In this document: one piece after another, positions 2,366 to 39,344 of the stretch
Position numbering within the stretch: the first letter of the stretch is position 1
How the letters are laid out: each line of letters opens with the position of its first letter
Assembly (NCBI GenBank): GCA_045636865.1
Contig: JAZTYJ010000019.1
Span: forward strand, 475-64,474
Length of the DNA: 64,000 nucleotides
From: Eubacteriales bacterium
GTDB taxonomy: Bacteria > Bacillota > Clostridia > Oscillospirales > JAAYXM01
Direction of reading: 5' to 3'
Program-made: the position numbers and the translations under genes
Notes under the pieces: generated by a model
Seen by the model: the letters and a program-made list of their open reading frames with translations, nothing else
Databases searched by the model: none
What the model was told of the DNA's origin: nothing

Positions 2366-2400
2366 CTTTGTTTCCTCTTTCTGATAAACTATACAAAGAC

Positions 2401-2430
2401 AGTATAACATAAAAGTACACGTTTTTGCAA
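2401..2430 (-). promoter_or_regulatory. Candidate metG promoter
   Basis: On the minus strand: TTGCAA (2430-2425), 18 nt, then TGT-TATACT (2409-2401). This leaves a short leader with no room for a T-box. Confidence 0.45.
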
Positions 2431-9612: not shown

Positions 9613-9616
9613 GGAT

Positions 9617-10681: not shown

Positions 10682-10693
10682 GAAGTGTTTAAA

Positions 10694-11836
10694 ATGGATA
10701 TCAATAATCTCAGAAAAGACATTGACAGTATCGACCGTGAAATTTCAGAGCTTCTTAAAAAGAGAATGGAAACTGCGGCAAAAATTGGTGAGTATAAGAG
10801 GGAAAACGGACTTCCGGTATACGATGCAAAGCGCGAGAGCGAGCTTCTTGACAAGATTGAGGGTTACACGAAAGAAGAGTTTTCTGCTTATGCAAGGGTT
10901 ATCTATCAGACGATTATGGACACCTCGCGTTCATACCAGAGAAAGCTCCTTTTAAAGGATTCTCCCATCCGCACAGCTATGGAAGCTGCTATCGGAAAAA
11001 CCGAAAAGCTCTTTCCTGAGAGTGCGGTTGTCGCGTGTCAGGGCGTTGCAGGTGCATATTCACAGATAGCTTGCGAAAAGCTTTTCAAGAAGCCGAGCAT
11101 TATGTATTTCGGAAGCTTTGAAGACGTTTTCCGCGCGGTTGACAAAAAGCTCTGCAAATACGGCGTTCTGCCGATCGAAAACAGTACGGCAGGTTCAGTA
11201 AATAAGATTTACGACCTTATGGCAAAGTATAAATTCCATATTGTCCGCGGTGCGCGAATTCAGGTTGGACATGCGCTCCTTGCAAAGCGCGGAGTTAACC
11301 TTTCGGACATCACGGAAATCTTCTCTCATGAGCAGGCTATAAATCAATGCAGCGAGTTTTTGGAGAAGAATAAGAACATAAAGGTAACACGCGTTGAGAA
11401 TACAGCGGTTGCAGCACGTATGGTTGCAGAATCCGACAGACGCGACATTGCGGCGCTTTCGTCTCCCGCATGCGCAGAGCTCTATGAGTTGTCACCCATT
11501 TTCGATAACGTCTGCGATCATACGGGAAACTATACGAGATTTATCTGCATCTCAAAAGAGCTTGAGATTTATCCCGGTGCCGACAAGACGAGCCTTATGC
11601 TCAAGATTCCGCATAAGCCCGGTTCACTCTACCGAATCCTTGCGCGCATAAATTCTCTCGGCATAAACCTTGAAAAGCTCGAAAGCCGCCCGAAACCGGG
11701 AAGTGACTTTGAGTTTATGTTCTATTTTGACCTTGGCGCATCTGTCTACTCTCCTGCGCTTTTCGAGCTTATATGCGACCTCGATAACGACATTCCTGGA
11801 TTTAAATATTTCGGAAGCTATAAGGAGATTGTTTAA
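10694..11836 (+). CDS. pheA: Bifunctional chorismate mutase / prephenate dehydratase with ACT domain
   Basis: ORF 10685..11836. ATG 10694 follows AGGAAG. It has an N-terminal CM helix region, the ENSTAGSV PDT motif and a C-terminal ACT-like TSLMLKIPHKPGSLYRIL. Confidence 0.9.
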   Translation: MDINNLRKDIDSIDREISELLKKRMETAAKIGEYKRENGLPVYDAKRESELLDKIEGYTKEEFSAYARVIYQTIMDTSRSYQRKLLLKDSPIRTAMEAAIGKTEKLFPESAVVACQGVAGAYSQIACEKLFKKPSIMYFGSFEDVFRAVDKKLCKYGVLPIENSTAGSVNKIYDLMAKYKFHIVRGARIQVGHALLAKRGVNLSDITEIFSHEQAINQCSEFLEKNKNIKVTRVENTAVAARMVAESDRRDIAALSSPACAELYELSPIFDNVCDHTGNYTRFICISKELEIYPGADKTSLMLKIPHKPGSLYRILARINSLGINLEKLESRPKPGSDFEFMFYFDLGASVYSPALFELICDLDNDIPGFKYFGSYKEIV

Positions 11837-12969: not shown

Positions 12970-14055
12970 TTGAAAATGACATTCCGCTGGTACGGCGAAG
13001 GCAACGATAAGATAAGCCTTTCCGACATCAAGCAGATTCCCGGCGTAGACGGTATCGTCTGGGCTCTTCACCACAAGATGCCGGGCGAAATCTGGGAGGA
13101 AGAAGAAATCGCAGAAGTCAAGCGCCAGCTTGATGAGTACGGTTTTAATATGGACGTTGTTGAATCAGTAAACGTTCACGACGATATCAAAATCGGTCTT
13201 CCCACAAGAGACAAATACATAGAAAACTACAAGCAGTGTATCAGAAACCTCGCAAAATACGGCGTCAAGGTTATCTGCTACAACTTTATGCCGATTTTTG
13301 ACTGGACAAGAAGTAACCTCTTCCATCCGGTTGGTGACGGTTCAACAGCTCTTTACTACGAAAAGGGTATGATTCAGGACGATTACAACGCAATGGCTGA
13401 ATATATCCTCAATTTCACAGAAAAGTACAATATGTCATTCCCCGGCTGGGAGCCTGAGAGAATGGCAAAGCTTGATGAGCTCTTCAAGGCATACGAGGGC
13501 GTTGACCACGAAAAGCTCTGGGCAAACCTCAAATACTTCCTCGAGGCACTTATGCCGACCTGCCGCGAGTGCGACGTCAAAATGGCTATCCATATGGACG
13601 ATCCACCATGGGATATCTTCGGTCTTCCGCGTCTCCTTGTTGACGAGGCAAGCATCGACAGATTCTTAAAGATGGTTGACGATGAATACAACTGCCTCAC
13701 TCTCTGCTCGGGAAGCCTCGGTGCAAACCCGGACAACAACGTTGCAGACATCGTCCGCAAGCATTGTGACAGAATCGCATTTGCTCACATCAGAAACGTC
13801 AAGCACTTCCCGAACGGCGACTTCACGGAAGCATCACACCGCGACTGCGATGGCGATACGGGTGTTCTTGAAATCGTTAAGGCATACCACGACTGCGGCT
13901 TTGAAGGATATATCCGCCCTGACCACGGCAGACACCTCTGGTCAGAAGGCCCCGGAAGCGTCCGCCCGGGCTACGGTCTTTACGACCGCGCTCTCGGAAT
14001 TATGTATATGCACGGAATCTGGGATACTCTTGACCGCATAAAGGGAATAAAGTAA
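12970..14055 (+). CDS. uxuA: Mannonate dehydratase
   Basis: ORF 12889..14055. Start placed at TTG 12970 (MKMTFRWYG...), 8 nt after AGGAG. ATG 12976 is an alternative. The N-terminus is typical of UxuA. Confidence 0.85.
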   Translation: MKMTFRWYGEGNDKISLSDIKQIPGVDGIVWALHHKMPGEIWEEEEIAEVKRQLDEYGFNMDVVESVNVHDDIKIGLPTRDKYIENYKQCIRNLAKYGVKVICYNFMPIFDWTRSNLFHPVGDGSTALYYEKGMIQDDYNAMAEYILNFTEKYNMSFPGWEPERMAKLDELFKAYEGVDHEKLWANLKYFLEALMPTCRECDVKMAIHMDDPPWDIFGLPRLLVDEASIDRFLKMVDDEYNCLTLCSGSLGANPDNNVADIVRKHCDRIAFAHIRNVKHFPNGDFTEASHRDCDGDTGVLEIVKAYHDCGFEGYIRPDHGRHLWSEGPGSVRPGYGLYDRALGIMYMHGIWDTLDRIKGIK

Positions 14056-14073
14056 ACAAAAGTTTGCGAAAAA

Positions 14074-14105
14074 CAAGACCGCATCTGTTCTCCGGTGCGG
14101 TCTTG
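14074..14105 (+). terminator. uxuA terminator hairpin
   Basis: CAAGACCGCA pairs with TGCGGTCTTG across a 12-nt loop, followed by AATTTTGATTT. Confidence 0.6.
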
Positions 14106-14184
14106 AATTTTGATTTCAAGGTCATTTTTATGCAAAATAACAAAAAAATTTTGGTTTTTTTGCTAATATTTTCAAAAAATATAG

Positions 14185-14213
14185 TTGTAAATTGAAAAGA
14201 AATCGTTTATAAT
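14185..14213 (+). promoter_or_regulatory. Candidate gap promoter
   Basis: TTGTAA (14185-14190), 17 nt, TATAAT (14208-14213). Confidence 0.55.
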
Positions 14214-14237
14214 ATATAGTAATGTGAAAAAAATTAG

Positions 14238-15260
<1,023 letters not shown>

Positions 15261-15277
15261 GATTTAATTTACAAACC

Positions 15278-15310
15278 AAAACACCGCTTCAGACGAAGCG
15301 GTGTTTTTTT
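15278..15310 (+). terminator. gap terminator
   Basis: ACACCGCTTC, loop AGAC, GAAGCGGTGT, followed by T6. Confidence 0.85.
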
Positions 15311-15321
15311 GTAGAGAGAAA

Positions 15322-15351
15322 CGGGAGATATGCAGATTTGCATATCTCCCG
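15322..15351 (-). terminator. Terminator hairpin at the end of the minus-strand sugar cluster
   Basis: CGGGAGATATGCA, loop GATT, TGCATATCTCCCG, lying 10 nt beyond the stop at 15361. Confidence 0.6.
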
Positions 15352-15360
15352 AAATAGTAT

Positions 15361-16863
15361 TTAGTTATCAAACATTTTGTTGATTTCAGTTATTGTGTTG
15401 CGAACCAGGAGATCGCCGCCTTCGTGTCCCGTGTCACCGCTTGTGATGTATGCGCTGTAATGACCGTGTTTCTCAGCCTTCTCCGTCGGGAGATATGCAT
15501 GAGATCCGCAGCAGAGCTGAACGATAAAGGTCTGCTTTGCATAGCTTCGAGCCTTCATGCGGAGAGCAAAGTCGAGGAAGAGTTCATACGGATTAGTCGC
15601 AATTGCGATATCTCCGAAACGAACAACGTGATACTCAATCGGAACAACTTCCGTAAGTTGCTGCTCGCGGTATCTGAGAATTTCACCTGCGTAGACGTGC
15701 ATTCTGGCGATGTCGACATAGTCAAAGTTTCCCTTATGCTTGTTCTTCTCAATGTAAGCCTCAAGCTCGCGTACTGCATTTTCATACTGTGAGGGAGTGA
15801 CCTTGCGAAGCGGAAGATTTAAGTTTATGACCTCATGCTCAAAGATTGCCTCGTCCTTGTATTCTTCAATCTCATCATAAACCGCGATGATTTCGTTTGC
15901 GATACGTTTGCCGACTCTGTTGCAACCCTTGATGTCAAACATCGACGGGTCAGCCTTGCGCTCAATAACGTTCGGGCGGTCGATGTTCGGATCGTCAATC
16001 GGAGTTTCGGGCTCAACCCATCTTACGAGGTCGCGCGGGCACTGGTCGCCGCCTGCACCGCAGAGTGCGAGGAGGTGAACATCTTCGCCGAATCTTTCGC
16101 GGAGATATGCTTTCGTTCTGCCCCAGAAGTCAGCAGAAATAAAGCTTCTCTGCTCAAGAATCTGGGCGGGGCAGGCGATGTTTGCAACAACACCTGTGAG
16201 TTTTTTGTTCTTATCGAAGAAGTAGAGAAGCTCAACACCTGAGTCGTTTCCGCCTTCAAGACCAATAAAGTTTGCGGTGTTTGTGTCACCCCACATCTTC
16301 GCTGTACCGTCATCATAGCAGACGCGGCGGTTCATACCGACTGCGGCACGGCCGAATTCGTTTGCATAAAGAGCTTCTTTGCGGTTGTCCCACGCGCGTT
16401 TTGCGGCAAGGGCAATCTTGTCCGTGAGAAGCTCAAGTGCTTCTTCCGGAGAGCAGACGCTCTCATCGGGTGTAACCTTTTTCTCGTACGTTATACCATC
16501 AGGGAGATATTCTTCAACGATGGCTGCCGCCGATGCGATGGTTGAAGCGGAGGCTGCAGACGGTGATGCAAAAACGAGAGAGGTGTGAGTGTGCGTTGCG
16601 CAGACGATGAGCTTTTTCGGGTCAACCTCGTCTGTGAGCTTTGCAAACTTCTCTCTTGCAATTTCAAGCTGCGCCTCTTTGATCTGCGCAATATCTGCAG
16701 AGACGAAAATCATCTGTTCTCCGTCTGCTTCTACTGCAAGTGCTGTAGCCGTGATGTCTGATTCGACATATTCTGAAATTCTTTCAAAAAACTGACCTGC
16801 AAGGCTTGCTTTTTTTGGGGGGATAAGGCTCTCTTCAGCCCAACCTGCATATATTTTTCCCAT
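15361..16863 (-). CDS. Paralog A of an unknown-function hydrolase-like protein (neutral-ceramidase-N-terminal-like)
   Basis: 500-aa ORF with a good RBS (GGAGGAAG). The pattern GWAEE..IP...SLAGQ...R.S..V.SD.. and the CATHTHTS core recall the ceramidase_alk N-domain. That family call is from memory and tentative. Confidence 0.6.
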   Translation of the reverse strand: MGKIYAGWAEESLIPPKKASLAGQFFERISEYVESDITATALAVEADGEQMIFVSADIAQIKEAQLEIAREKFAKLTDEVDPKKLIVCATHTHTSLVFASPSAASASTIASAAAIVEEYLPDGITYEKKVTPDESVCSPEEALELLTDKIALAAKRAWDNRKEALYANEFGRAAVGMNRRVCYDDGTAKMWGDTNTANFIGLEGGNDSGVELLYFFDKNKKLTGVVANIACPAQILEQRSFISADFWGRTKAYLRERFGEDVHLLALCGAGGDQCPRDLVRWVEPETPIDDPNIDRPNVIERKADPSMFDIKGCNRVGKRIANEIIAVYDEIEEYKDEAIFEHEVINLNLPLRKVTPSQYENAVRELEAYIEKNKHKGNFDYVDIARMHVYAGEILRYREQQLTEVVPIEYHVVRFGDIAIATNPYELFLDFALRMKARSYAKQTFIVQLCCGSHAYLPTEKAEKHGHYSAYITSGDTGHEGGDLLVRNTITEINKMFDN

Positions 16864-16939
16864 TTTAACTTCCTCCGGAATGAAGTGTATGTATTTTCGG
16901 GAAGAACAGGAAGCCGTGAGACTTCCTGTTCTGCTTTAA

Positions 16940-18448
16940 TTATTTTGAAAACATTTCGTTGATTTGGGTAATTGTCTCGCGGACAAGGAGGTCGCCGCCT
17001 TCGTGGCCGGTTTCACCGCTTGTGATATATGCGCTGTAGTGACCGTGAGCCTCAGCCTGCGCTGTCGGGAGATATCCGTGAGCACCGCAGGAGAGCTGAA
17101 CGATGAATGTCTGCTTTGCATAACTTCTTGCCTTTATGCGGAGAGCAAAGTCAAGGAAGAGCTCGTACGGGTTTGTTGCAAAAGCAATATCGCCGAAGCG
17201 GACAACGTGATATTCAATCGGGAAAAGCTCTGTAAACTGCTGTGTCTGGAAACGGATGATTTCGCCTGCGTAGATATACATCTTTGCGATGTCGACAAAG
17301 TCAAAGTTACCCTTGTCTTTATTCTTTTCGACGTAAAACTCAAGCTCTCTGATTGCGTTTTCGTGCTGTGTGGGAGTAACCTTGCGAAGCGGAGTGTTGA
17401 GAGTGAGTGCTTTGTGTTCAAAGACAGCTTCACTCTTTAAGTCTGCTTCTTCGATTTCGTCGTAAACCGCGATGATTTCGTTTGCGATACGTCTGCCGAC
17501 TCTGTTGCAACCCTTGATGTCAAACATTGACGGGTCAGCCTTGCGCTCAATGACGTGCTGACGGTCGATGTTCGGGTCGTCAATCGGAGTTTCGGGTTCT
17601 ACCCATCTTACGAGGTCGCGCGGGCACTGGTCGCCGCCTGCACCGCAGAGTGAGAGAAGGTAAATATCTTCGCCGAATCTTTCGCGGAGATATGCCTTTG
17701 TTCTGCCCCAGAAGTCAGCAGAGATAAAGCTTCTCTGCTCGAGAATCTGTGAGGGACAAGCGATATTTGCGGCAACACCCGTGAGTTTCTTATTCTTATC
17801 GAAGAAGTAGAGAAGCTCGATGCCTGAGTCGTTTCCGCCTTCGAGACCGATGAAGTTTGCGCTGTTTGTGTCGCCCCACATCTTTGCTGTACCGTCATCG
17901 TAGCAGACGCGGCGGTTCATACCGACTGCGGCACGGCCGAATTCGTTTGTGTAGTAAGCCTCTGCTCTGCTGCTCCATGCCTTATATGCGGCAAGGGCAA
18001 TTTTATCCGTGATGAGCTCAAGTGCTTCCTTCGGTGTGCAGACAGAGTCGTCGGGAGTAACCTTCTCTTCGTACTTCTGACCTTCGGGGAGATATGACTC
18101 GATGATTTCAGTTGTAGAAGCAATAGGTGAGGACGGACCTGCATCGTTGCTGTCGGCAAGAAGAGAGGTGTGAGTGTGTGTTACTGCAACGATGAGTTTG
18201 TCTGTATCAAAATCAGGAGCAAGTTTTGCGAGTTTTTCTCTTGAAAGCTTCATCTGACCGTCTGTAATTTTTACAAGGTCTGCAGAAGCCATAATCATCT
18301 GCTCACCATCTGCCTCAACTGCGAGAGCTGTAACGGTGATGTCAGATTCAACGTATTCTGAAATTCTTTCAAAAAACTGACCTGCAAGGCTTGCTTTTTT
18401 TTCGGGGATGATGGACTCTTCAGCCCATCCAACATATATTTTTCCCAT
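16940..18448 (-). CDS. Paralog B of the same hydrolase-like family
   Basis: 502 aa, collinear with paralog A along the whole length (MGKIY.GWAEES.IP.KKASLAGQFFERISEYVESDIT...). RBS GGAGGAAAC. Confidence 0.6.
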   Translation of the reverse strand: MGKIYVGWAEESIIPEKKASLAGQFFERISEYVESDITVTALAVEADGEQMIMASADLVKITDGQMKLSREKLAKLAPDFDTDKLIVAVTHTHTSLLADSNDAGPSSPIASTTEIIESYLPEGQKYEEKVTPDDSVCTPKEALELITDKIALAAYKAWSSRAEAYYTNEFGRAAVGMNRRVCYDDGTAKMWGDTNSANFIGLEGGNDSGIELLYFFDKNKKLTGVAANIACPSQILEQRSFISADFWGRTKAYLRERFGEDIYLLSLCGAGGDQCPRDLVRWVEPETPIDDPNIDRQHVIERKADPSMFDIKGCNRVGRRIANEIIAVYDEIEEADLKSEAVFEHKALTLNTPLRKVTPTQHENAIRELEFYVEKNKDKGNFDFVDIAKMYIYAGEIIRFQTQQFTELFPIEYHVVRFGDIAFATNPYELFLDFALRIKARSYAKQTFIVQLSCGAHGYLPTAQAEAHGHYSAYITSGETGHEGGDLLVRETITQINEMFSK

Positions 18449-18466
18449 TTCTGTTTCCTCCGCAAA

Positions 18467-19822
18467 TTAGATAATGTATATGCCGAGCATATCGCAGAGA
18501 TTTTCTATAAGCTCTGAATTATCACCGTAAGAGATGATGTAGTGCTGGCACATAACGTTTTCTGCAAAATCAGGAACATCGTCAAGGATGATTTCAAGTC
18601 CCGGAAGCTGCGGAGCCGGCTGAGTCCATCCTGCTTCCTCCCACTTTCTCGGTGTAACACCCTCACCGACTACCATATGCATGTAGTAGTTGCCGTCTTC
18701 GTATGTAAGGCGGCACATTGTAACCTTTCCGGGCTTTACGCGACTTACATTGAGGATACCCTCTGAAAGCTCGCCGAATGCCGCAGGCATAACGGTAACT
18801 TCGCCGTCAACACACTCTGCCGGAACAAAGTCGGGAACACCTGCAAGAACGCGGTCTTCAAAGAACTCGTAGAATTCGAGGTAGAACGCACACTGACCTG
18901 TGAGGTATTTTACCATAAGCTGTGTGATTCCGCCGAGAGAGTCGTTCTCGGGGATTGTGCAGAGCTTTTCCTCATCGGAGAGGAGCATAAATATCGGAGC
19001 CGGCGGGAAGCCGAGAAGCTTCTTCATACCGTCAACGTCCTTAAGGGAGATCGCGTCATATCCGCGCTCGTCGCAGATAGACTTGATTGCAAGATAGTAT
19101 CCTGCAGCCTTCTTCATGCTTTCGGGGTTTGCAGGCTTTAGGAACTTCCACTTTGACATTGCGTTGTCAATAACTGCCTGAATTTCTGCATCTGAAAGTT
19201 TTTCGTAACGCTGCTGAATCTCAAGCATCTCAAATGTCTCGATTTCGGGACCTATCTGACGCTTGAGTGAGCCGCCGTCATAAAGTGTGCCGTAGAGATT
19301 CATATCGCGATAGCCTGCCTGACCTGCCTTTGCGTGGCGGAGGCGTGCTGCAGCACTTGCAGCAATCGCGTAGTTTGCGACCTTCTTTGTGTTTGACGGA
19401 AGACCGATGATGTCGTAGATATACTTAAAGTCATATCCGAGGTCGTAGAATGTTTTGCGGAGAGCAGTTGTGCCTGCCTGGTCAGCAGTTGTGACGAGAC
19501 GGTCGCCTTCCATCCATCCGCAAAGACCCCACAGAACCATCGGCTTGTGGCGGAAATGCTCTGTAACCTTTACTACCGCGTGGGTCGGAATCCAACCTGC
19601 GATACAGCAGACGAGAACGTCAAAGTCCTGTCCTTTGAGAGCGTCAATAGCTTTTTTAACGTCTTTTTCCTCGTAATCGTCAGTTACGGGATATACGCTT
19701 ATAAGGTCAAGTCCTTCTTTTTTAAGACCTGCCTCTGCTTCTTTAACTTTTTTGAGTATAATGTCGGCAGGGGTGTTTACTTCACCAAATCCGACAAATG
19801 CTGCCTTTACCATATTCTTCAC
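18467..19822 (-). CDS. L-fucose/L-arabinose isomerase-family protein (substrate unknown)
   Basis: 451 aa. The N-terminal layout (KAAFVGFGEVNTP..., DVLVCCIAGW) is typical of the FucI/AraA-like family. Call is from memory. Confidence 0.5.
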   Translation of the reverse strand: MKNMVKAAFVGFGEVNTPADIILKKVKEAEAGLKKEGLDLISVYPVTDDYEEKDVKKAIDALKGQDFDVLVCCIAGWIPTHAVVKVTEHFRHKPMVLWGLCGWMEGDRLVTTADQAGTTALRKTFYDLGYDFKYIYDIIGLPSNTKKVANYAIAASAAARLRHAKAGQAGYRDMNLYGTLYDGGSLKRQIGPEIETFEMLEIQQRYEKLSDAEIQAVIDNAMSKWKFLKPANPESMKKAAGYYLAIKSICDERGYDAISLKDVDGMKKLLGFPPAPIFMLLSDEEKLCTIPENDSLGGITQLMVKYLTGQCAFYLEFYEFFEDRVLAGVPDFVPAECVDGEVTVMPAAFGELSEGILNVSRVKPGKVTMCRLTYEDGNYYMHMVVGEGVTPRKWEEAGWTQPAPQLPGLEIILDDVPDFAENVMCQHYIISYGDNSELIENLCDMLGIYII

Positions 19823-21225
19823 ACCTTTCTTGTATTAAGAATATCATCATATTTCACGAAGCTTTCATAAACCTCGCTAAAGTCTGCACCTGTCGGTGCA
19901 TATTCCTTATCAGTTTCAATGTTTTTGCAGGCATCCTCAACTGATGAAAAGACGCCTGCGCCGACACCTGCAAGGATTGCAGAGCCGAGACACGCAGTTT
20001 CTTTATTCTTGAGAGTGAGGAGATGCTTGCCTGTCATATCGGCTTTTATTCTGCACCAGAGAGGGCTCTTTGCGCCGCCACCCATAATGCGGATTTCGTC
20101 AACCGGTACGCCGAGATAGTCAAGGTTTGACTTGAGCATACAAGCAACGGATTCCATAATACTGCGGACAAAATGCGCCGGAGTGTGCTCGGGTGCGATG
20201 CCCGTAAAGCTTCCCTTTGCGTCGGGATTATATTTCGGCATAGTTGAGCCGCAAAGGTAGGGGAGGAAGGTAAGCCCTTCGCAACCGGGTGCGACCGACT
20301 CTGCCATTTCATCAAGCTCAATAAAGGATTTATCCTTTAAAAATGCCTCGCGGAACCACTTGAGAGCCATGCCTGCAGTTGCGCTCCACGAAAGAAGAGC
20401 GAAGCTTCCGTCAAAGCTGTAATGGCAGGGGACGAAGCTTTTTTCGTCGTATTCGGGAATCTTGTCCGTCGGGACATAAATAGCCATAGTGGTACCCGTC
20501 ATAACGCTGATTCTTCCCATTTTGATAACGCCTGCGCCTATCGCACCTGCAACCTGATCCATCGCAGAGGTTGAAACCTTTATGCCGTCATAGTCTCCGA
20601 CGTATTTTCCGCTGTCAAGAAGAGTGGGGAGCTGATTTTCGGACACGCCGATAAAATCGAGCATCTCCTTCCAGTAAGCGGAATTTCTGATGTCGAAGTA
20701 GATAGTTGATGACTGAAGAGTTTTCTCTGTTACGAATCTGCCCGTAAGCTTGTAGAGAAGGTAGTCTTCAAGCAAAAAGATTTTCTTTGTTTTTGCCCAG
20801 ACCTCGGGTTCGTTGCGTTTTACCCACAAAAGCTTGCAGGCAGGCCATGTGGCCGTAATCTCGGGCTGCCCCGTAACCTCAAAAACCTTCTTCCTGCCAA
20901 AGTGTGCATCAATCATTGCGGCTTCTTCGGTCGCACGGTTATCAAGCCACACAATGGCATCGCGGACGGGATTTCCGTTCTCATCCGTGAGGATAAGCGT
21001 CTCGCACTGCGTGTCGATTGCAAGGCAATCGACCGCAGCGGACTTTTTTATGTTTTCAAGCGCATTTGTGAGAAGAGACCAATACTTTTCGGGCTCAAGC
21101 TCAACTATGTTTCCGGAAGTTTTTAAGGTATAATCCTCTGTCGATTCGGCAAGTGTCTTAAGATTTTCATCAAAAAGCACCGCCTTGACAGATGTGGTTC
21201 CGAAATCAATTCCAAGACAATTCAT
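19819..21225 (-). CDS. FGGY-family carbohydrate kinase (xylulokinase-like)
   Basis: 468 aa. N-terminus LGIDFGTTSVKAVLFD and C-terminal GGGAKSPLW motif. 4-nt overlap with the downstream isomerase gene. Confidence 0.85.
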   Translation of the reverse strand: MNCLGIDFGTTSVKAVLFDENLKTLAESTEDYTLKTSGNIVELEPEKYWSLLTNALENIKKSAAVDCLAIDTQCETLILTDENGNPVRDAIVWLDNRATEEAAMIDAHFGRKKVFEVTGQPEITATWPACKLLWVKRNEPEVWAKTKKIFLLEDYLLYKLTGRFVTEKTLQSSTIYFDIRNSAYWKEMLDFIGVSENQLPTLLDSGKYVGDYDGIKVSTSAMDQVAGAIGAGVIKMGRISVMTGTTMAIYVPTDKIPEYDEKSFVPCHYSFDGSFALLSWSATAGMALKWFREAFLKDKSFIELDEMAESVAPGCEGLTFLPYLCGSTMPKYNPDAKGSFTGIAPEHTPAHFVRSIMESVACMLKSNLDYLGVPVDEIRIMGGGAKSPLWCRIKADMTGKHLLTLKNKETACLGSAILAGVGAGVFSSVEDACKNIETDKEYAPTGADFSEVYESFVKYDDILNTRKV

Positions 21226-21230
21226 ATTGA

Positions 21231-21851
21231 TTATCTTTTGAGCTGGAGATCGTAGTGTGGATCGTATGCCTTTTCTTCGTCTGTGTACTTGTGGAGAGTG
21301 TCGATAACTTCACCGTTGTTCCACTTTCTGTCGCCTACGTCCTCAGTTGTACCCATAACTGTAACGTTGAGCTGACGACGACGTGCACGAACGTGATCCC
21401 AGTCAACAAAGTAGATGTGAGCGAACTCACCGCCGTCAAGAACGCCGTCCTTGATTGTCATAAGTTCGCTTGTGCCGAAGAATACGCTGCGGAGGTGTCC
21501 GTCTGTGTTCATGCTTGTGAAGTCACCCGGCTCGTTGACGTATCTGCCGAACTGTGTGTGGAGCGGACCCGGATGACGGTACTGATGCTCTTCAGCAAAG
21601 TCCGGAATCATCTTTCTCATAATGTCGAGAAGGTCGTGCTGGAGATATTCGATATCGAATGAACCGATGTCGTGTGAGCACTCCTGAATCATAACTGAGC
21701 AAGTTGTGTGGTGTGATGCGATAGCAACTGTACCGTTCTTAATGCCTGAAGCCTGAACGATTTCGATGATTTCTTTTGATACGTCGTGGAAAGTCGGGAT
21801 CCAACCTTTTGACTGTAACTCTAATTCCTTCTGAAAAATCTTGAATTCCAT
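21231..21851 (-). CDS. YjbQ/UPF0047-like protein with C-terminal extension
   Basis: 206 aa. The core GTVAIASHHTTCSVMIQECSHD resembles the HTT(A/C)S..I.E motif of UPF0047. Confidence 0.5.
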   Translation of the reverse strand: MEFKIFQKELELQSKGWIPTFHDVSKEIIEIVQASGIKNGTVAIASHHTTCSVMIQECSHDIGSFDIEYLQHDLLDIMRKMIPDFAEEHQYRHPGPLHTQFGRYVNEPGDFTSMNTDGHLRSVFFGTSELMTIKDGVLDGGEFAHIYFVDWDHVRARRRQLNVTVMGTTEDVGDRKWNNGEVIDTLHKYTDEEKAYDPHYDLQLKR

Positions 21852-21875
21852 GATAAAATCCTCCTAAAAAATTTT

Positions 21876-22469
21876 TTATTTGTTGAGTCTTTCGCCTACT
21901 GCACCGCCGGGATGGATTGTCGCAAACTTTTCGTTCTGGAAATCCGTCTCCTCGATGATTGCCGTCTGCAGAACGTGGAAAATCATACAGAGGGCAGTTG
22001 TCGAAGTGGTTCCCTGGCAGTTGTATTTATCCGTTTCGCGGTTGACGTGCTGCTTGAGCACGACATCCGCACCGAGAGCAAGAGGCGAATCCATGTTCTC
22101 GGTAACGGAAATTACCTTGATGTTTTTCTTCTTGCAGATGTCAAGAATCGGGAGAAGCTCCTGTGTCTTTCCGCCGCGTGATGCAAATACCATAACATCA
22201 CCCTCCTGCAAAAAGCCCGTTGCGCCGTGAACAGCCTCGGCAGGGGATATGAACCTCGCCGGCTGCTCAACGCAGCAGAGAAGATGCGCAAAGTGTTGGC
22301 AGATTATGCCGCTGTGTCCGCATCCGCAGGTGCCGATTCGCGGCGCGCGGATGAGAAGCTCAACAGCCTTTGAATATGCATCCTCGTCAAAATAATCGAG
22401 CATTTCCTTAATGCATTCATACTCGGTTATGTATGCCTGTTTTGCCTGAAGTAAAGCTTCTTTTTTCAT
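21876..22469 (-). CDS. SIS-domain sugar-phosphate isomerase (PHI/KpsF-like)
   Basis: 197 aa. GCGHSG nucleotide/sugar-phosphate loop, and FASRGGKTQE followed by VISVTEN, as in SIS domains. Confidence 0.7.
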   Translation of the reverse strand: MKKEALLQAKQAYITEYECIKEMLDYFDEDAYSKAVELLIRAPRIGTCGCGHSGIICQHFAHLLCCVEQPARFISPAEAVHGATGFLQEGDVMVFASRGGKTQELLPILDICKKKNIKVISVTENMDSPLALGADVVLKQHVNRETDKYNCQGTTSTTALCMIFHVLQTAIIEETDFQNEKFATIHPGGAVGERLNK

Positions 22470-22481
22470 AAGATTTACTCC

Positions 22482-23183
22482 TTAAGCGTGAAGCTCGTCC
22501 CAGGCCTTGCGGAGATTATAAAGCATCTCCTCAACCATAGCAGCCTGGTCGTCTGCCTTGATAATGCCGCTTGTTGAACCCGTAGCCTGAGCTCCGAGCT
22601 TTATTGTATCATAAACGTCCTTGCCGTTTGAGATACCTGCACCCTGAAGCACCATAATGTCGGGGTTGATTTCGTTGACGGTCTTAATCGTTTCGATAAC
22701 GTAGTTGCTGTCACTTGTCTTGCCTGTTCCGATAAGGTCTGTCGGCTCTGCAACGATGAGGTTCGGGCCCATCTTTGCGATAGCCTTGACGTCCTCAACC
22801 GTATCTGCACAAACGATTGTGCCAAGCCCTACCTCGTCAGCGCGGGCGATGGTTTTTTCAATTTCTTCCATAGTGAGCGGGCATTCTGCATGGTTGAGCA
22901 TAACGCCGACAGCCCCTGCTGCCTTGACAGCTTCGGGAAGAACGCTTCCGAGACCTCTGCCTATCGGGAGATAGTCCATATGCTGTGCAAAAACAAGGAT
23001 TCTTTCCGTGTTGTCTGCGAGCAGCTTGATGTCAGTATACTGAGGTGTAACGATGACATCGAGGTCATATTTGAGCGCAACCTTGTCGATTACTTTTGCG
23101 AGTCTGAGCATATCCTCGCCATACATGTATGCTTTCGGTCCGATTTCGAAAAACGGCGGTTTGATTTTCAAACCTTTATACAT
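22482..23183 (-). CDS. Archaeal-type triose-phosphate-isomerase paralog with altered N-terminal substrate motif
   Basis: 233 aa. VFAQHMD, VLPEAVKAAGAVGVMLNHAE and IVAEPTDLIGTG match archaeal TIM blocks from memory. The INFK motif reads IGPK here. Confidence 0.65.
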   Translation of the reverse strand: MYKGLKIKPPFFEIGPKAYMYGEDMLRLAKVIDKVALKYDLDVIVTPQYTDIKLLADNTERILVFAQHMDYLPIGRGLGSVLPEAVKAAGAVGVMLNHAECPLTMEEIEKTIARADEVGLGTIVCADTVEDVKAIAKMGPNLIVAEPTDLIGTGKTSDSNYVIETIKTVNEINPDIMVLQGAGISNGKDVYDTIKLGAQATGSTSGIIKADDQAAMVEEMLYNLRKAWDELHA

Positions 23184-23222
23184 TGAAAAGCACCTCCTTT
23201 AAATTGTTGTTTACATATATTT

Positions 23223-23252
23223 ATAATACAACAGGAAAACCCCGTATGTCAA
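23223..23252 (-). promoter_or_regulatory. Candidate promoter of the seven-gene sugar cluster
   Basis: On the minus strand: TTGACA (23252-23247), 18 nt, TATTAT (23228-23223). Confidence 0.55.
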
Positions 23253-23288
23253 CAATTTCTTGCTTTTGTTTTGCCTATTTTTCAAAAC

Positions 23289-23370
23289 CGAAAGAAAAAC
23301 GAAAGAATATGTTTTTAATCGAAAGTATATTTCGGGTAAAGTGAAAGTTGCTTTGTTGACATACCGAAAG
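23289..23370. repeat. Array of five (C/T)GAAAG direct repeats, a candidate DeoR operator array
   Basis: CGAAAG at 23289, 23300, 23320 and 23365, and TGAAAG at 23342. Spacings are 11, 20, 22 and 23 nt. The last copy sits inside the spacer of the DeoR-gene promoter. Confidence 0.45.
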
Positions 23371-23384
23371 AGGAGTGGTATAAT
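23356..23384 (+). promoter_or_regulatory. Consensus promoter of the DeoR-family regulator gene
   Basis: TTGACA (23356-23361), 17 nt, TATAAT (23379-23384). Confidence 0.7.
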
Positions 23385-23410
23385 TTTTGTAGAAAACAAG
23401 AGGTGAGAAT

Positions 23411-24175
23411 ATGGTTGCAGATGACAGAAAACAAAAAATACTTGATCTTTTAAAGACAAACGGAAGTGTCAAGGTTGCAGAACTCAGCCGTCTTTTTGAT
23501 GTCTCGGAGGTAACGGTCAGAAACTACCTTGCCGATATGGAAAGCAAAGGCCTTCTTTCAAGAATCCACGGCGGCGCGCTGAGCTCATACAAGCCGTATT
23601 ACAGCATGAATCTCAACCAGAGACTTGAAACAAATCACTCGGAGAAGGTTAAAATTGCCGAGCGCATTTCGCAGATGATAAAGCAGAACGATACGGTTAT
23701 GCTGAATTCGGGAACAACAACGCTTCTTGCGTTCCGAAAGTTTCCTGCGGAGTACAACCTCAATATTGTTACAAACTCAATTTCCATCGCGCTTGAGGCA
23801 TCAAGCAACCCGAATTACAACGTAATCTTAATCGGCGGAAGCATCAACACAAAATATCAGTTTTCGTTCGGAAACGATGCCGCAGACCAGCTCAAGCGTT
23901 ATCACGCGGATAAGCTCATCCTCTCGGTAGACGGAATTGATCTCTCCGCAGGATTTACTACTTATTATGATAAAGAAGCAGACATCGACAGGGTGATGAT
24001 AGAAAATTCCGACCATTGCATAGTCGCGGCAGACAGTTCAAAATTCTGCCACAACGCGTTTGTCAGAATTTCTGATTTGTCGGTTGCCGATACCATTGTT
24101 ACAAATGCAAGGTTAAATCGCGAATACTCCGAAAGATTTGACGAACTCGGCATAAAAACAGTATTTACGGATTAA
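23411..24175 (+). CDS. DeoR-family transcriptional regulator
   Basis: 254 aa. N-terminal HTH VKVAELSRLFDVSEVTVRNYLADMESKGLLSRIHGGA and a DeoR C-terminal sensor domain. Confidence 0.9.
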   Translation: MVADDRKQKILDLLKTNGSVKVAELSRLFDVSEVTVRNYLADMESKGLLSRIHGGALSSYKPYYSMNLNQRLETNHSEKVKIAERISQMIKQNDTVMLNSGTTTLLAFRKFPAEYNLNIVTNSISIALEASSNPNYNVILIGGSINTKYQFSFGNDAADQLKRYHADKLILSVDGIDLSAGFTTYYDKEADIDRVMIENSDHCIVAADSSKFCHNAFVRISDLSVADTIVTNARLNREYSERFDELGIKTVFTD

Positions 24176-25547: not shown

Positions 25548-25578
25548 TGGGTAAAATGATAGGGAAGGGGTGTTTCGT

Positions 25579-26043
25579 ATGGCAGAAACTTCTATTCGCC
25601 AGATTGCGAAAAATCGCAAGGCGTGGCACGACTACACAATTGAAGATTCGTATGAAGCGGGAATTTCGCTGTGCGGAACCGAAGTCAAATCCCTTCGTCA
25701 GGGTGCTGTCAACCTTAAAGACTCGTTCTGCTCGGTTAAAGACGGCGAGCTCATCGTCCACGGGATGCACATAAGCCCATATGAGCACGGTAACATCTTT
25801 AACCGCGAGCCGAGGCGCAACCGAAAGCTGCTTATGCACAAATCAGAAATCCGCCGCCTTGCCGCCGCGCAAGCACAGCAGGGTTACACCATAATTCCGC
25901 TTTCAATATATTTCAAGGGCTCACTCGTCAAGGTTCAGGTAGGGCTCTGTAAGGGTAAGAAGCTCCACGACAAGCGCGATGCCGCCGCAGCACGCGATGC
26001 AAAGCGCGAGATGGACAGAGCGATAAAGGAACAACGAGGTTAA
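25579..26043 (+). CDS. smpB: SsrA-binding protein SmpB
   Basis: ORF 25570..26043. ATG 25579 follows AGGGGTG. KNRKAWHDYTIEDSYEAGISLCGTEVKSLR is the canonical SmpB N-terminus. Confidence 0.95.
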   Translation: MAETSIRQIAKNRKAWHDYTIEDSYEAGISLCGTEVKSLRQGAVNLKDSFCSVKDGELIVHGMHISPYEHGNIFNREPRRNRKLLMHKSEIRRLAAAQAQQGYTIIPLSIYFKGSLVKVQVGLCKGKKLHDKRDAAAARDAKREMDRAIKEQRG

Positions 26044-26047
26044 AGAA

Positions 26048-26887
26048 ATGATTTGCGAAACAATATTTTTAAAAGATGTGTTTCCTGGATTTGAAACGGA
26101 TTCATTCATTACATCATACGTTCACTCAAATTGCATTTCTGTCGAGCCGGACAGAAAGCGGGCAGCGGTTGTGATTTGTCCCGGTGGTGCATATTATGAT
26201 TTGAGTCTTCGGGAAAAAGAACCGATAGCAGAGGCGTTTTACGCTATGGGTTATAACGCGTTTGTTCTTGAATACTCAACAGCTTGCCGCAACAACAATA
26301 AATACCCGACACAGCTTCTTGAATCGAGCGCCGCGCTTGCATATATCCGAAGAAACTGCGAAAAATATAATACCAAAAAGGATGCGCTGATGATAGCCGG
26401 TTTTTCGGCAGGCGGACACATGGCGGCTATGCTCGGTGCGCTCTGGAATGAAAAAGTTGTTACGGAGACGCTCAGTATAGAATTTGGTGAAAACAGACCT
26501 GATGGTCTTATCCTTTCATATCCGGTAATTACGGGTGGCGAGTTTGCTCATCGTGGTTCGTTTGATAATCTTCTTGGCGAAAACCCGAGCGAAGATGTGG
26601 TTTTTAAGACTTCTCTTGAAAATTCGGTAGGAGAGCATACACCGCCGGCATTTATCTGGCATACGTTTACAGACGAGGGCGTTCCGGTCGAAAACGCGTT
26701 TCTTTTCGCAAATGCGATGAGACGTGCAAGCGTTCCGTTTGAGATGCATATTTTCCCTGACGGACCTCACGGAATAGCTCTCGGAAACCTTGAAACAGGA
26801 GTAGAAGGCCATCCGTTTTATAATCAGCACGTCGCGTCGTGGACGGGATTGTGTGATAATTGGATAAAAAAGTTTATTGATAGATAA
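26048..26887 (+). CDS. Alpha/beta hydrolase (esterase/lipase-like)
   Basis: 279 aa. Nucleophile elbow GFSAGGH and an oxyanion-region CPGGAY. 4 nt after the smpB stop. Confidence 0.75.
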   Translation: MICETIFLKDVFPGFETDSFITSYVHSNCISVEPDRKRAAVVICPGGAYYDLSLREKEPIAEAFYAMGYNAFVLEYSTACRNNNKYPTQLLESSAALAYIRRNCEKYNTKKDALMIAGFSAGGHMAAMLGALWNEKVVTETLSIEFGENRPDGLILSYPVITGGEFAHRGSFDNLLGENPSEDVVFKTSLENSVGEHTPPAFIWHTFTDEGVPVENAFLFANAMRRASVPFEMHIFPDGPHGIALGNLETGVEGHPFYNQHVASWTGLCDNWIKKFIDR

Positions 26888-27241
26888 GGGGGCGTAAAGG
26901 CTTCGACGGGGATGTTGAAGCACGAGTAGCGGGCAGAGGCGCAGAGCCGCTTTAAAAGCTGCAACTTAATTTTTATAAATTAACTAACAACAATAAACTT
27001 ATTGCTGCTTAATTAATCAGCAGCCATCTTCCCCGGGAGGACCACGGCCCGGGAGTAAGGTGTCATGCAGTGGTGAACGTGATCGGGCAAAGCTTTGAAC
27101 CCGGCATGTAAGATGAAGCTACCAAGTTTGGAAGCCCGCCTGTCGGCGTCCATACGAGGGAATGTAAACATCAGGCTGCGCCCGGAGAAACTTTTGTGAA
27201 TACGTTTTCGGACGGGGGTTCGACTCCCCCCGCCTCCACCA
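26888..27241 (+). ncRNA. ssrA: tmRNA (SsrA)
   Basis: 5' GGGGGCGTAAAGGCTTCGACGGGG and 3' GGACGGGGGTTCGACTCCCCCCGCCTCCACCA. The acceptor stem GGGGGCG/CGCCTCC has the G3-U70 pair. An internal reading frame ends ...LTNNNKLIAA-TAA (26999-27001 stop region). Confidence 0.95.
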
Positions 27242-28060: not shown

Positions 28061-28139
28061 GATTTTATCGGAGATGTGTGATAAAATGAAAACATAAAAC
28101 CAAATATATTCACACAGAGTGTCGGTTGTGCCGCAAATG

Positions 28140-28322
28140 CTTTTCGGGTAAGGCATAATTGGTGGAAAGGGAATGGGGTGAGAATCCCCTGCGATAACTG
28201 TCGGTGTGTGCATCGAAGTTTTTATATCCGTTATCGAAAGATAGTCATTGGGAAACCGAGAAGGCAGGATATAAAAATGCGGACTTTTTGTCTATATGGT
28301 GTAAGCCACAAGACCTGCTTTG
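28140..28322 (+). promoter_or_regulatory. Cobalamin (B12) riboswitch aptamer
   Basis: GGTGGAAAGGGAATGGGGTGAGAATCCCCTGCG...ACTGTCGG core (28161-28205), plus the B12 box AGCCACAAGACCTGC (28304-28318). Confidence 0.85.
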
Positions 28323-28430
28323 ATATTATTCCGCAAGCGCGGCTTCTGCACAGGAATAGTATTTTCGGATTTGAGGAAAAAGGTTTTTTGCACTTGTGTC
28401 CGGATTGTGAGCAATCACAGGAAAACTCAG

Positions 28431-28471
28431 CTGTGGTAATTTTTCTTTTGAAAGGTTACCGCAGTTTTTTT
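28431..28471 (+). terminator. Riboswitch expression-platform terminator
   Basis: CTGTGGTAA (28431-28439) pairs with TTACCGCAG (28456-28464), followed by T7. Confidence 0.7.
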
Positions 28472-28508
28472 ATTTTAAATTAAACGTCCTGCGAAGGTGA
28501 GGTGATTT

Positions 28509-29396
28509 TTGGTGGGATTTAAAACATATCATCCGATTGTGAATTTTACATATTTCGTGCTCGTGATAGGTTTTTCGTGTGCGCTTTTGCATCCTGCGGC
28601 ATTGTGCATTTCGCTGCTTTGCGGTTTTGTATATTCCGTGATGCTGAAAGGCAAAAAGGCGATAAAGACGAATCTTTTGTATATGCTGCCGATGCTTATT
28701 GCGATGGCACTGATAAATCCCGCCTTCAATCACGAGGGGATTACGATTATAACATATCTGCCGAGCGGAAACCCGCTGACTCTCGAATCGATTATCTACG
28801 GAATGTGCGCGGCAACAATGATAGTGAGCGTAATTTGCCATTTCTCCTGCTATTGCGAGGTTATGACGAGCGATAAATTCATATATCTTTTCGGAAGGAT
28901 TATTCCGTCTCTGTCGCTTATAATCTCAATGACACTCCGCTTTGTGCCGAGATTCCGTGCACAGCTTAAGGTTGTTGCGGAGGCGCAGAAATGTATGGGG
29001 CGCGATGCAGAAGGCGGAAAGCTTATAAAACGCGCAAGGTGCGGGCTCAATATCCTGTCGGTTATGACGACGTGGGCTCTTGAAAACGCAATCGACACCG
29101 CGGACAGTATGAAATCCCGCGGCTACGGACTCCCCGGAAGGACAGCTTTTTCAATCTTTAAGTTTTCAAGACGCGACAAGACTGCGCTTTTTTCCATTTT
29201 GCTTCTTGGTGCATATACGTTTGCGGGAAAGCTTTTTGGCGGGATGACTTTTGAATTCTTCCCGAAGATTTCGGCGGCGGATGTTTCGGTATATGGAATA
29301 AGTGTGTTTTTGTCATATTTACTTCTTTGCATAAGTCCTGTAATAATTGAAATATGGGAGGTGAGAAAATGGAAAGCTTCAAGGTCGAAAATCTGA
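28509..29396 (+). CDS. ECF transporter transmembrane (T) component, CbiQ/EcfT family
   Basis: 295 aa, polytopic. TTG/GTG start after AGGTGAGGTGA. C-terminal coupling region ...ALENAIDTADSMKSRGY. Confidence 0.75.
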   Translation: MVGFKTYHPIVNFTYFVLVIGFSCALLHPAALCISLLCGFVYSVMLKGKKAIKTNLLYMLPMLIAMALINPAFNHEGITIITYLPSGNPLTLESIIYGMCAATMIVSVICHFSCYCEVMTSDKFIYLFGRIIPSLSLIISMTLRFVPRFRAQLKVVAEAQKCMGRDAEGGKLIKRARCGLNILSVMTTWALENAIDTADSMKSRGYGLPGRTAFSIFKFSRRDKTALFSILLLGAYTFAGKLFGGMTFEFFPKISAADVSVYGISVFLSYLLLCISPVIIEIWEVRKWKASRSKI

Positions 29397-39157: not shown

Positions 39158-39272
39158 AATGGCAACTTCCTTTCAAATAATTACAACTCACAAATATATT
39201 ATCATAAATGTAAAAATATTGCAAGTAATTAAAAAAATAGCAACTTTTATGAAAAAAAGAGAGCGTTTTAGG

Positions 39273-39301
39273 TTGAATTTCAGATGCCATTATGGTATCA
39301 T
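39273..39301 (+). promoter_or_regulatory. Candidate promoter of the polysaccharide locus
   Basis: TTGAAT (39273-39278), 17 nt, TATCAT (39296-39301). Confidence 0.5.
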
Positions 39302-39344
39302 ATAAATGTATATTTGTGCGCAGAATAAAAGGAAGGGTGCGAAA

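Follow-up and report, generated by a model that had tools for sequence, protein, structure and literature searches.

Which pathway is served by an operon that joins an FGGY kinase and a FucI/AraA-like isomerase to a triosephosphate isomerase (TIM) paralog, an SIS isomerase, a YjbQ/UPF0047 protein and two paralogous proteins of about 500 aa (H500a and H500b)? The question is raised by seven genes, divergent from a DeoR regulator gene, in a 64-kb stretch of contig JAZTYJ010000019.1 (the window, 64,000 nucleotides), which derives from a bovine gut metagenome and belongs to an uncultured cattle-gut Clostridium. The analysis showed that the operon is a real, widely conserved gene set, the members of which are co-conserved. 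It combines the familiar hydrolase-isomerase-kinase logic with an unfamiliar back end and is apparently undescribed; on balance, we regard it as a DeoR-repressed catabolic operon for an aldose, probably plant- or gut-derived. An earlier interpretation of the same DNA, made from its letters (the sequence-only reading), was partly supported. The genes concerned are the following:

22482-23183, minus strand, TIM paralog, 233 aa
21876-22469, minus strand, SIS isomerase, 197 aa
21231-21851, minus strand, long YjbQ/UPF0047 protein, 206 aa
19819-21225, minus strand, FGGY kinase, 468 aa
18467-19822, minus strand, FucI-like isomerase, about 449 aa
16940-18448, minus strand, H500a, 502 aa, predicted neutral-ceramidase fold
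15361-16863, minus strand, H500b, about 500 aa, paralog of H500a
23411-24175, plus strand, DeoR regulator, divergent from the operon

The sequence-only reading had described seven co-oriented minus-strand genes with small gaps, one 4-nt overlap and one 76-nt gap, and the same coordinates and gaps were found: from the TIM gene to the H500b gene, the spacing is 12, 24, 5, -4 (the overlap), 18 and 76 nt. Its motif-based family calls for the seven proteins were all verified with Pfam/NCBIfam, Foldseek and profiles.

Co-conservation of the operon genes

Eighty species-representative loci centred on the isomerase were fetched and their open reading frames (ORFs) clustered; 35 of these loci had full flanks. 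The locus sampling was isomerase-centred, and the YjbQ side was sampled in three contexts. The relatives obtained in this way are metagenome-assembled genomes; they come from ruminants and other animals and represent Oscillospiraceae-like Clostridia as well as Lachnospiraceae. H500 was present in 31 of the 35 full-flank loci, the FGGY kinase in 26 (its gene adjoins the FucI-like gene in 26/35), TIM and SIS in 14 each and YjbQ in 13. All six families of the window occurred together in 11 of the 35, and 10 of these 11 also carried a 224-aa FSA/TalC-type transaldolase, for which fructose-6-phosphate aldolase models are the nearest. An MFS transporter with weak similarity to PgtP/UhpC follows H500 in 14/35. 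When the 19 loci carrying TIM, SIS and YjbQ are taken as the reference, the FGGY kinase was found in 19/19, H500 and the transaldolase in 17/19 each and the DeoR gene in 14/19. At four loci (L036, L041, L062 and L072) the order is rearranged and the gene set unchanged. The sequence-only reading had counted on the genes being co-conserved, and the set does recur around the isomerase in the 80 species-representative genomes, with MFS or ABC transporters in the relatives.

Smaller variants of the locus were also detected, namely LacI / isomerase-H500-MFS and DeoR / MATE-kinase-isomerase-H500-aminotransferase (class-III)-GFO, and some of the smaller variants contain PGA_cap and M20 peptidase genes. 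According to the sequence-only reading, no aldolase, dehydrogenase, transporter or glycoside hydrolase is present. This holds for the seven genes, in which Pfam found none of the four, and it does not hold as a trait of the system, because relatives carry the transaldolase and the MFS transporter. No homologue of the transaldolase, the MFS transporter, the aminotransferase, GFO, PGA_cap or M20 was found in the 64-kb window, and H500a occupies the slot of the transaldolase gene in relatives. The missing aldolase and transporter are a peculiarity of the window copy, not of the system.

Two of the three YjbQ-side contexts again contain DeoR, FGGY, a FucI/AraA isomerase, TIM and SIS, and one of them is from Treponema. 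The contig of this Treponema sp. (L094) has the arrangement DeoR / FGGY, AraA-type isomerase, DUF4432, CUT2 ABC transporter, long YjbQ, TIM, short YjbQ and SIS; its isomerase is non-orthologous to that of the window, and its TIM paralog is split into ORFs of 93 and 151 aa (10651-11381) by an apparent frameshift. Another Clostridia lineage (L096/L097) shows the order DeoR-TIM-short YjbQ-FGGY-FucI-like-CUT1 ABC-GH4, with the long YjbQ and an SIS fragment transcribed divergently and interrupted by a prophage; the SIS remnant is 102 aa long (L096, 10723-11031) and lies beside prophage holin and tail genes. The solute-binding protein of the ABC system is of the Peripla_BP_4 family at L094 (6087-7190) and of the SBP_bac_1 family at L096 (3592-4881). 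A back end of DeoR, kinase, isomerase, TIM paralog, SIS and YjbQ thus recurs across phyla, and the front-end transporter and hydrolase (H500, GH4 or none) are exchangeable. A constant back end with an exchangeable front end is the pattern expected for one monosaccharide obtained from different sources.

The level of conservation differs between the genes. The long YjbQ proteins (window 21231-21851; L094, 10001-10621; L096, 10001-10726; L098, 10001-10621) are 80-83% identical, whereas the TIM, SIS, kinase and isomerase partners at the same loci are 32-59% identical, so that transfer of the whole cluster is no explanation. The methionyl-tRNA synthetase of the window (446-2410) is about 56% identical to those of the organisms that carry loci L008, L040, L048 and L053, whereas the cluster proteins reach 87-89% (TIM), 82-88% (YjbQ), 85% (isomerase), 78-79% (SIS), 76-79% (kinase) and 73-75% (DeoR) in the same comparison. 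Values of 73-89% against about 56% indicate either horizontal spread or unusually strong constraint. No mobile-element genes flank the cluster in the window.

Transcription signals and the divergent control region

In front of the operon, a promoter scan located TTGACA-18-TATTAT (minus strand, 23252..23223; 11/12 consensus matches), and in front of deoR a perfect TTGACA-17-TATAAT with an extended TG (plus strand, 23356..23384). Both the single operon promoter and the divergent DeoR gene that the sequence-only reading had reported were therefore recovered. Three non-coding features belong to the operon:

23184..23410, divergent control region of 227 bp with two promoters and a box array
16903..16932, minus strand, hairpin with an 11-bp stem in the 76-nt H500a/H500b gap
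15271..15351, minus strand, operon terminator region with two hairpins 3' of H500b

The DeoR protein matches Pfam HTH_DeoR and DeoRC (E 2.5e-45), and its nearest NCBIfam model is AgaR, with 198 bits, under the cut-off of 260; it is presumed to be the repressor of the operon. Boxes of the form A[AC]CGAAAG[AT] lie at 23284-23330 and 23363-23371, as three exact copies and at least one degenerate copy. Only six exact copies occur in the 64-kb window, and the presence of three of them within 227 bp is a strong local excess. At orthologous loci of other species, CGAAA[GA] boxes adjoin the -35 box, and we take the boxes as candidate DeoR operators. The control region also contains a perfect 12-nt inverted repeat, GTATGTCAACAA at 23244-23255 and TTGTTGACATAC at 23353-23364, which includes the -35 boxes of both divergent promoters.

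Directly 3' of H500b, a hairpin with a 13-bp stem (15351..15322) is followed by the T-rich tail TTTCTCTCT, and the second hairpin of the terminator region is common to the operon and the convergent gap gene. The hairpin between H500a and H500b has no T-run and is therefore no strong terminator; the ribosome-binding site of H500b, GGAGGA, comes after it. The 4-nt overlap with the FGGY gene results from a GTG start of the FucI-like gene, the homologues of which align from residues 3-5, so that the true start may lie a few codons downstream. The Rfam scan of the operon revealed no riboswitch or leader. In one gut metatranscriptome, short near-identical contigs were found on H500a, the isomerase and the kinase, which shows the presence of RNA at low depth and not co-regulation.

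The convergent gap gene (GAPDH) stands alone, as does a uxuA gene (mannonate dehydratase); the two occupy 12976-15260, between a block of aromatic amino-acid biosynthesis genes (5452-11836) and the operon. The gap gene converges on H500b, and the uxuA/gap neighbourhood is not kept at related loci.

Families, folds and catalytic residues of the encoded proteins

The kinase contains Pfam FGGY_N and FGGY_C and matches the xylulokinase 2itm of the PDB with E 2.9e-48. Its scores for TIGR01312 (XylB, 315.4 bits vs cut-off 380.25) and PRK15027 (178 vs 912) are both under the cut-offs. The isomerase, which is 82-94% identical across species, stays under the Pfam thresholds of Fucose_iso_C (25.9 vs 29.3) and AraA_central (23.1 vs 24); of the NCBIfam models, SftI (sulfoquinovose isomerase) comes nearest with 41 bits vs 700, followed by AraA at 25 vs 622 and FucI at 16 vs 775. 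Its AF2 model (pLDDT 72) was matched by Foldseek to L-arabinose isomerases with E 1.7e-18 and TM 0.70, and to fucose and D-arabinose isomerases with E of about 1e-11, which points to the three-domain FucI/AraA fold. The local hhalign alignment pairs E292 (in PENDSL) with FucI E337 and AraA E306 of E. coli, and E316 (in LEF) with AraA E333 and FucI D361; although the overall probability is low (about 4-5%), the motif ENDSL..LM..LTG is clearly matched. By eye only, H427 was paired with FucI H528 and AraA H450. With these numbers, which we take to be the active-site residues of FucI and AraA, the enzyme appears to keep the catalytic Glu/Glu pair and the metal-binding His of its class.

The TIM paralog scored 201.6 bits against the archaeal-type NCBIfam model NF003302, above the cut-off of 132, and matches Pyrococcus TIM (PDB 1hg3) with E 7e-43. 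It retains K17, H98, E146 and the phosphate loops, including GAGIS. Of the features that mark a bona fide TIM (Asn, Lys, His, Glu and the phosphate loops), the Asn is gone: INFK is changed to IGPK, with Gly in place of Asn, and HTGH to GLGS. The Asn is absent from 23/23 cluster TIM orthologues and likewise from the L096 and Treponema copies, which are 40-46% identical, and all of these have FE..xK. As the active site lacks Asn in all clades, we take the TIM paralog to have changed its specificity; the retained Lys, His, Glu and phosphate loops, in a protein lacking the Asn, would fit a substrate longer than triose phosphate.

The SIS protein (Pfam SIS, E 1.3e-18) has a single KpsF/GutQ-like domain and no CBS domains. 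NCBIfam GutQ and KpsF were matched at about 1e-33, far under every equivalog cut-off, and the closest solved relative is the Listeria SIS protein 3fxa (E 1e-38), which we take to be a reported glucose-6-phosphate isomerase. The YjbQ protein passed the Pfam UPF0047 cut-off (PF01894, 83.4 bits vs 27), lay just under that of TIGR00149 (66.4 vs 67.75) and exceeds the solved members of the family (134-151 aa) by about 60 residues. The YjbQ/UPF0047 family is widespread, and its first crystal structures date back about 20 years, but to our knowledge it has no known function. Overexpressed E. coli yjbQ bypasses pdxB via a route that apparently forms 2-oxo-3-hydroxy-4-phosphobutanoate (PMC3010111), and this bypass is a weak lead to C4 phosphate chemistry for YjbQ.

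H500a and H500b are 79.4% identical. H500b outscores H500a against nearly every related locus and is the copy nearer to the cluster-linked orthologues; two tandem H500 genes also follow the isomerase at L049 (11375-14402), so the duplication is not unique to the window. No Pfam or NCBIfam match was found for either protein, and searches of the PDB by sequence, with H500 alone or with a narrow profile, returned nothing. The call of a ceramidase-N-like protein in the sequence-only reading was nevertheless borne out by two methods. The AF2 model (pLDDT 75, pTM 0.81) matched only neutral ceramidases in Foldseek (2zws, 2zxc and 4wgk; E 2.7e-14 to 1.6e-12, probability 1.0, TM about 0.55), and a profile built from 71 diverse H500 relatives reached 2zws, the P. 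aeruginosa enzyme, with E 2.8e-15 and with the ATHTH motif and the Glu ligand aligned. The H500 proteins are thus predicted to have the fold of the neutral-ceramidase catalytic domain. H91, H93, E429 and Y459 are invariant across the 71 relatives and are matched to ATHTH and the Glu of 2zws in the alignment. Where the ceramidase, in what we take to be its numbering, has the third His as a zinc ligand, H500 has C-P-[AS]-Q. A signal peptide was not apparent at the N-terminus, which was read by eye only, and there is no C-terminal domain; the H500 proteins look like cytoplasmic metallohydrolases.

The H500 superfamily comprises 5,058 clusters at 50% identity (E <= 1e-3), and its members are named only 'hypothetical protein' in public sources. 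Its distant relatives scored 17-33 bits with PF04734 (cut-off 32.1), borderline at most. Several of them (P0375, P0383, P0361, P0368 and P0352) are fusions to AP_endonuc_2 (xylose-isomerase-like TIM barrels), GH2 sugar-binding domains or GDSL/LamG, and a weak match to a CBM9-like domain was also seen. These sugar-related fusions point to carbohydrate rather than lipid substrates. Compared with neutral/alkaline ceramidases (PF04734; 2zws, 4wgk), H500 shares the predicted fold, ATHTH and, apparently, the positions of the zinc-ligand Glu and Tyr. It differs in the missing signal peptide and C-terminal domain, in the replacement of the third His by C-P-[AS]-Q, in an identity of about 11%, in its score under the Pfam threshold and in its carbohydrate instead of lipid context.

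The window also contains a gene for a BD-FAE-type esterase (26048-26887), flanked on one side by smpB (25570-26043) and on the other by the tmRNA gene (26888-27241). At L005, L062 and L080, the isomerase/H500 genes adjoin esterases that belong to its ORF cluster or Pfam family.

Proposed pathway, known systems and rival explanations

The proposal is built on the gene structure, the family and fold assignments, the conserved catalytic residues, the co-conservation and the promoter and operator motifs; every reaction, the order of the steps, the inducer and the substrate are drawn from family chemistry and gene association. H500a and/or H500b would release a sugar from a conjugate by cutting an amide or another hydrolysable link. 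Such a release, suggested by the sequence-only reading, is plausible in view of the sugar-domain fusions of H500 relatives and of GH4 standing in the H500 position elsewhere. The FucI/AraA-fold isomerase would then convert the aldose to a ketose and the XylB-like FGGY kinase the ketose to a ketose phosphate, which, by analogy with other DeoR-family regulators, is the likely inducer of DeoR. The Asn-less TIM paralog, SIS and YjbQ would shift the carbonyl or invert centres in redox-free steps, and the sugar phosphate so formed would feed into glycolysis or the pentose-phosphate pathway. Most relatives would use the cluster-encoded FSA/TalC-type transaldolase for this last step and the MFS transporter for uptake; in the genome of the window, transaldolase and transporter would have to be encoded elsewhere. 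The specific version that we favour runs from a tetrose via a tetrulose and a tetrulose phosphate to erythrose-4-phosphate and transaldolase, and mirrors the back end of Brucella erythritol catabolism. This C4 version is speculative, and the substrate may also be a pentose, hexose or heptose.

Mycobacterial tetritol routes, with enzymes in M. smegmatis, are related to the Brucella erythritol pathway. In the Brucella pathway (Ery: EryA, EryB, EryC, EryH/TpiA2 and EryI/RpiB, then Tal or Fba), the TIM-family enzyme and the second isomerase give erythrose-4-phosphate, and transaldolase or Fba is needed for assimilation (PMC11508834). The operon resembles it in the FGGY kinase, the second sugar-phosphate isomerase, the DeoR-type control, what would be a TIM-family isomerase on a non-triose phosphate and redox-free back-end isomerisations and, in the relatives, the transaldolase exit. 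It differs in lacking the EryB-type dehydrogenase and the EryC-type racemase, in having SIS instead of RpiB and an archaeal-type TIM, in the additional FucI/AraA-fold isomerase, YjbQ and ceramidase-fold hydrolases, and in its hosts, which are anaerobic gut Clostridia and Treponema. Neither EryB nor EryC (AP_endonuc_2-type) was found in the seven genes or in the neighbouring genes that recur with the full cluster. The Brucella analogy drawn by the sequence-only reading is therefore strengthened at the exit, since 17/19 loci with TIM, SIS and YjbQ carry a transaldolase, one of the enzymes through which erythrose-4-phosphate enters central metabolism in Brucella (PMC11508834), and it fails for EryB, EryC and RpiB. 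The operon does not belong to the Ery pathway of Brucella.

Similarity to araBAD, fucPIK, rhaBAD and xylAB consists in a FucI/AraA-fold isomerase beside an FGGY kinase, a sugar-responsive repressor and, in the relatives, a dedicated transporter and a hydrolase supplying the monosaccharide. In contrast to these operons, the kinase is followed by no class II aldolase or 4-epimerase, their place being taken by the TIM paralog, SIS, YjbQ and transaldolase, and both isomerase and kinase are under the curated cut-offs of every named enzyme. A known fucose, arabinose, xylose or tagatose operon was ruled out, as the curated equivalog scores are far under the cut-offs; the sequence-only reading had foreseen that profile searches might place the genes in such an operon, and they did not. 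Sulfoquinovose degradation was rejected because the marker genes are absent, and uronate catabolism via the neighbouring uxuA because the uxuA link is not kept at other loci. The sequence-only reading could not match the cluster to a described pathway, and full-text literature searches agree: they returned no described pathway matching it, no paper pairing YjbQ with FGGY or ceramidase with fucose isomerase, nothing relevant on UPF0047 with isomerase, kinase and catabolism, and no match among papers on apiose/apulose. The public names of the cluster proteins are 'hypothetical protein', 'L-fucose isomerase-like' or 'YjbQ family' only.

Several observations weigh against the proposed pathway. The isomerase-H500 pair is also found without kinase, TIM, SIS or YjbQ, in loci under LacI control and in glycosidase-rich ones, so that the two operon halves may be separable modules, and the long YjbQ stands alone in Caldicoprobacterales. 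As the window encodes no transporter, aldolase or transaldolase, its copy does not suffice by itself. The third His ligand of ceramidase is absent from H500, which could thus catalyse something other than amide hydrolysis; the AF2 models of the isomerase and H500 are of only moderate confidence (pLDDT 72-75), and the RNA evidence consists of assembled contigs at low depth. For the tetrose version in particular, the mutarotase-like DUF4432 and the CUT2 monosaccharide ABC transporter of Treponema suit a pentose or a hexose equally.

The first of these points could be explained by two independent adjoining modules, one with isomerase and H500 (and perhaps the kinase) for glycan-degradation loci and the other with TIM, SIS, YjbQ and transaldolase for sugar-phosphate housekeeping or repair. 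For the isomerase-H500 pair, which occurs by itself with LacI/MFS or among glycosidases, this is partly true, and the solitary long YjbQ of Caldicoprobacterales, together with the 80% identity of YjbQ across phyla against 32-59% for its partners, would agree with it. As an account of the whole operon it is unlikely, however, because kinase and isomerase are present in 19/19 loci with TIM, SIS and YjbQ, because the association outlasts both gene-order rearrangement and transfer into a spirochaete, where the isomerase is non-orthologous, and because the window operon has a single promoter and terminator and gaps of 5-24 nt. The pathway might alternatively serve an anionic C6 sugar (a sulfo-, phospho- or carboxy-aldohexose) in the manner of sulfo-TAL (SftI, SftT), with organo-anion-like MFS import, SftI-like isomerisation, an FSA/TalC split and transfer of the C3 product to the kinase and the TIM paralog. 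SftI is the nearest curated family of the isomerase and also interconverts glucose-6-phosphate and fructose-6-phosphate (PMC7491151), both isomerases are short FucI-like proteins (about 445 aa), and the hosts are gut Firmicutes living in herbivore guts, where sulfoquinovose is abundant (PMC13219744). In the relatives, moreover, a TAL_FSA-family transaldolase and an MFS transporter with weak PgtP/UhpC similarity are co-conserved in one cluster. Against this, the similarity to SftI is very low, just 41 bits vs a cut-off of 700, the approximately 90 loci contain no sulfoquinovosidase (GH31), no sulfolactaldehyde reductase or dehydrogenase and no sulfonate exporter, and the window has no transaldolase. 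The known sulfo-TAL also requires none of the kinase, TIM, SIS and YjbQ that are present here, and we find this explanation quite improbable.

A slim chance is left to a triose salvage or gluconeogenic module, in which glyceraldehyde or dihydroxyacetone would be isomerised and phosphorylated, a true TIM and an FSA-type aldolase would lead to fructose-6-phosphate, and a PGI-like SIS to glucose-6-phosphate. The TIM protein does pass the NCBIfam subfamily cut-off, the co-conserved partner in relatives is nearest to fructose-6-phosphate aldolase models, and the closest solved relative of SIS, Listeria 3fxa, is presumably a glucose-6-phosphate isomerase. But the canonical TIM Asn is absent in every member of the clade, a 450-aa FucI/AraA-fold isomerase and the mutarotase-like Treponema partner make little sense for trioses, and no role is left for H500 and YjbQ. 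The reverse direction, i.e., biosynthesis of a rare sugar or an N-acylated amino-sugar or polyol, with the ceramidase-fold enzymes acting as acyl transferases and the product being exported, appears far-fetched. Neutral ceramidases are able to catalyse their reverse reaction, and some variant loci carry MATE exporters, the class-III aminotransferase and the GFO-family oxidoreductase; yet the regulators belong to repressor-type families (DeoR and LacI), the transporters are of the uptake type (ABC/MFS) with glycosidases nearby (GH4, GH3, GH28 and GH88), the transaldolase connects to central metabolism, and the clusters contain neither nucleotidyltransferases nor glycosyltransferases.

Elsewhere in the window, a cobalamin riboswitch (28134-28336) is followed by an unannotated 295-aa ORF and an 881-aa protein (region 28134-31999), the latter consisting of two ABC ATPase domains fused to an ECF S-component. 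Between 40000 and 52000, the GC content falls to 0.37-0.41 with a strong positive GC skew. This low-GC stretch, which begins just past two genes at 37988-40010 (one for a sugar-transfer ATP-grasp protein, one for Bac_transf), probably represents an acquired island or a locus for surface polysaccharide.

Returning to the proposed DeoR-repressed catabolic operon for an aldose, its parts can be joined, tentatively, into one undescribed pathway of redox-free sugar-phosphate isomerisation that is distributed across phyla, in which the YjbQ/UPF0047 proteins would be pathway enzymes, the Asn-less TIM clade would act on longer substrates and H500 would be a family of carbohydrate-active hydrolases feeding the pathway. 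If this is true, the cluster would provide the first physiological role for UPF0047/YjbQ proteins, the function of which it offers a direct way to test, and the first functional context for a ceramidase-fold superfamily with thousands of members and no Pfam model. It would also be a second example of an isomerase cascade, beside erythritol/tetritol catabolism. The identity of 73-89% of the cluster proteins, against 56% of the synthetase, points to strong selection or recent spread, and the cluster would be the sign of a nutrient niche, so far unrecognised, that the abundant, uncultured Clostridia of ruminant and other animal guts occupy.

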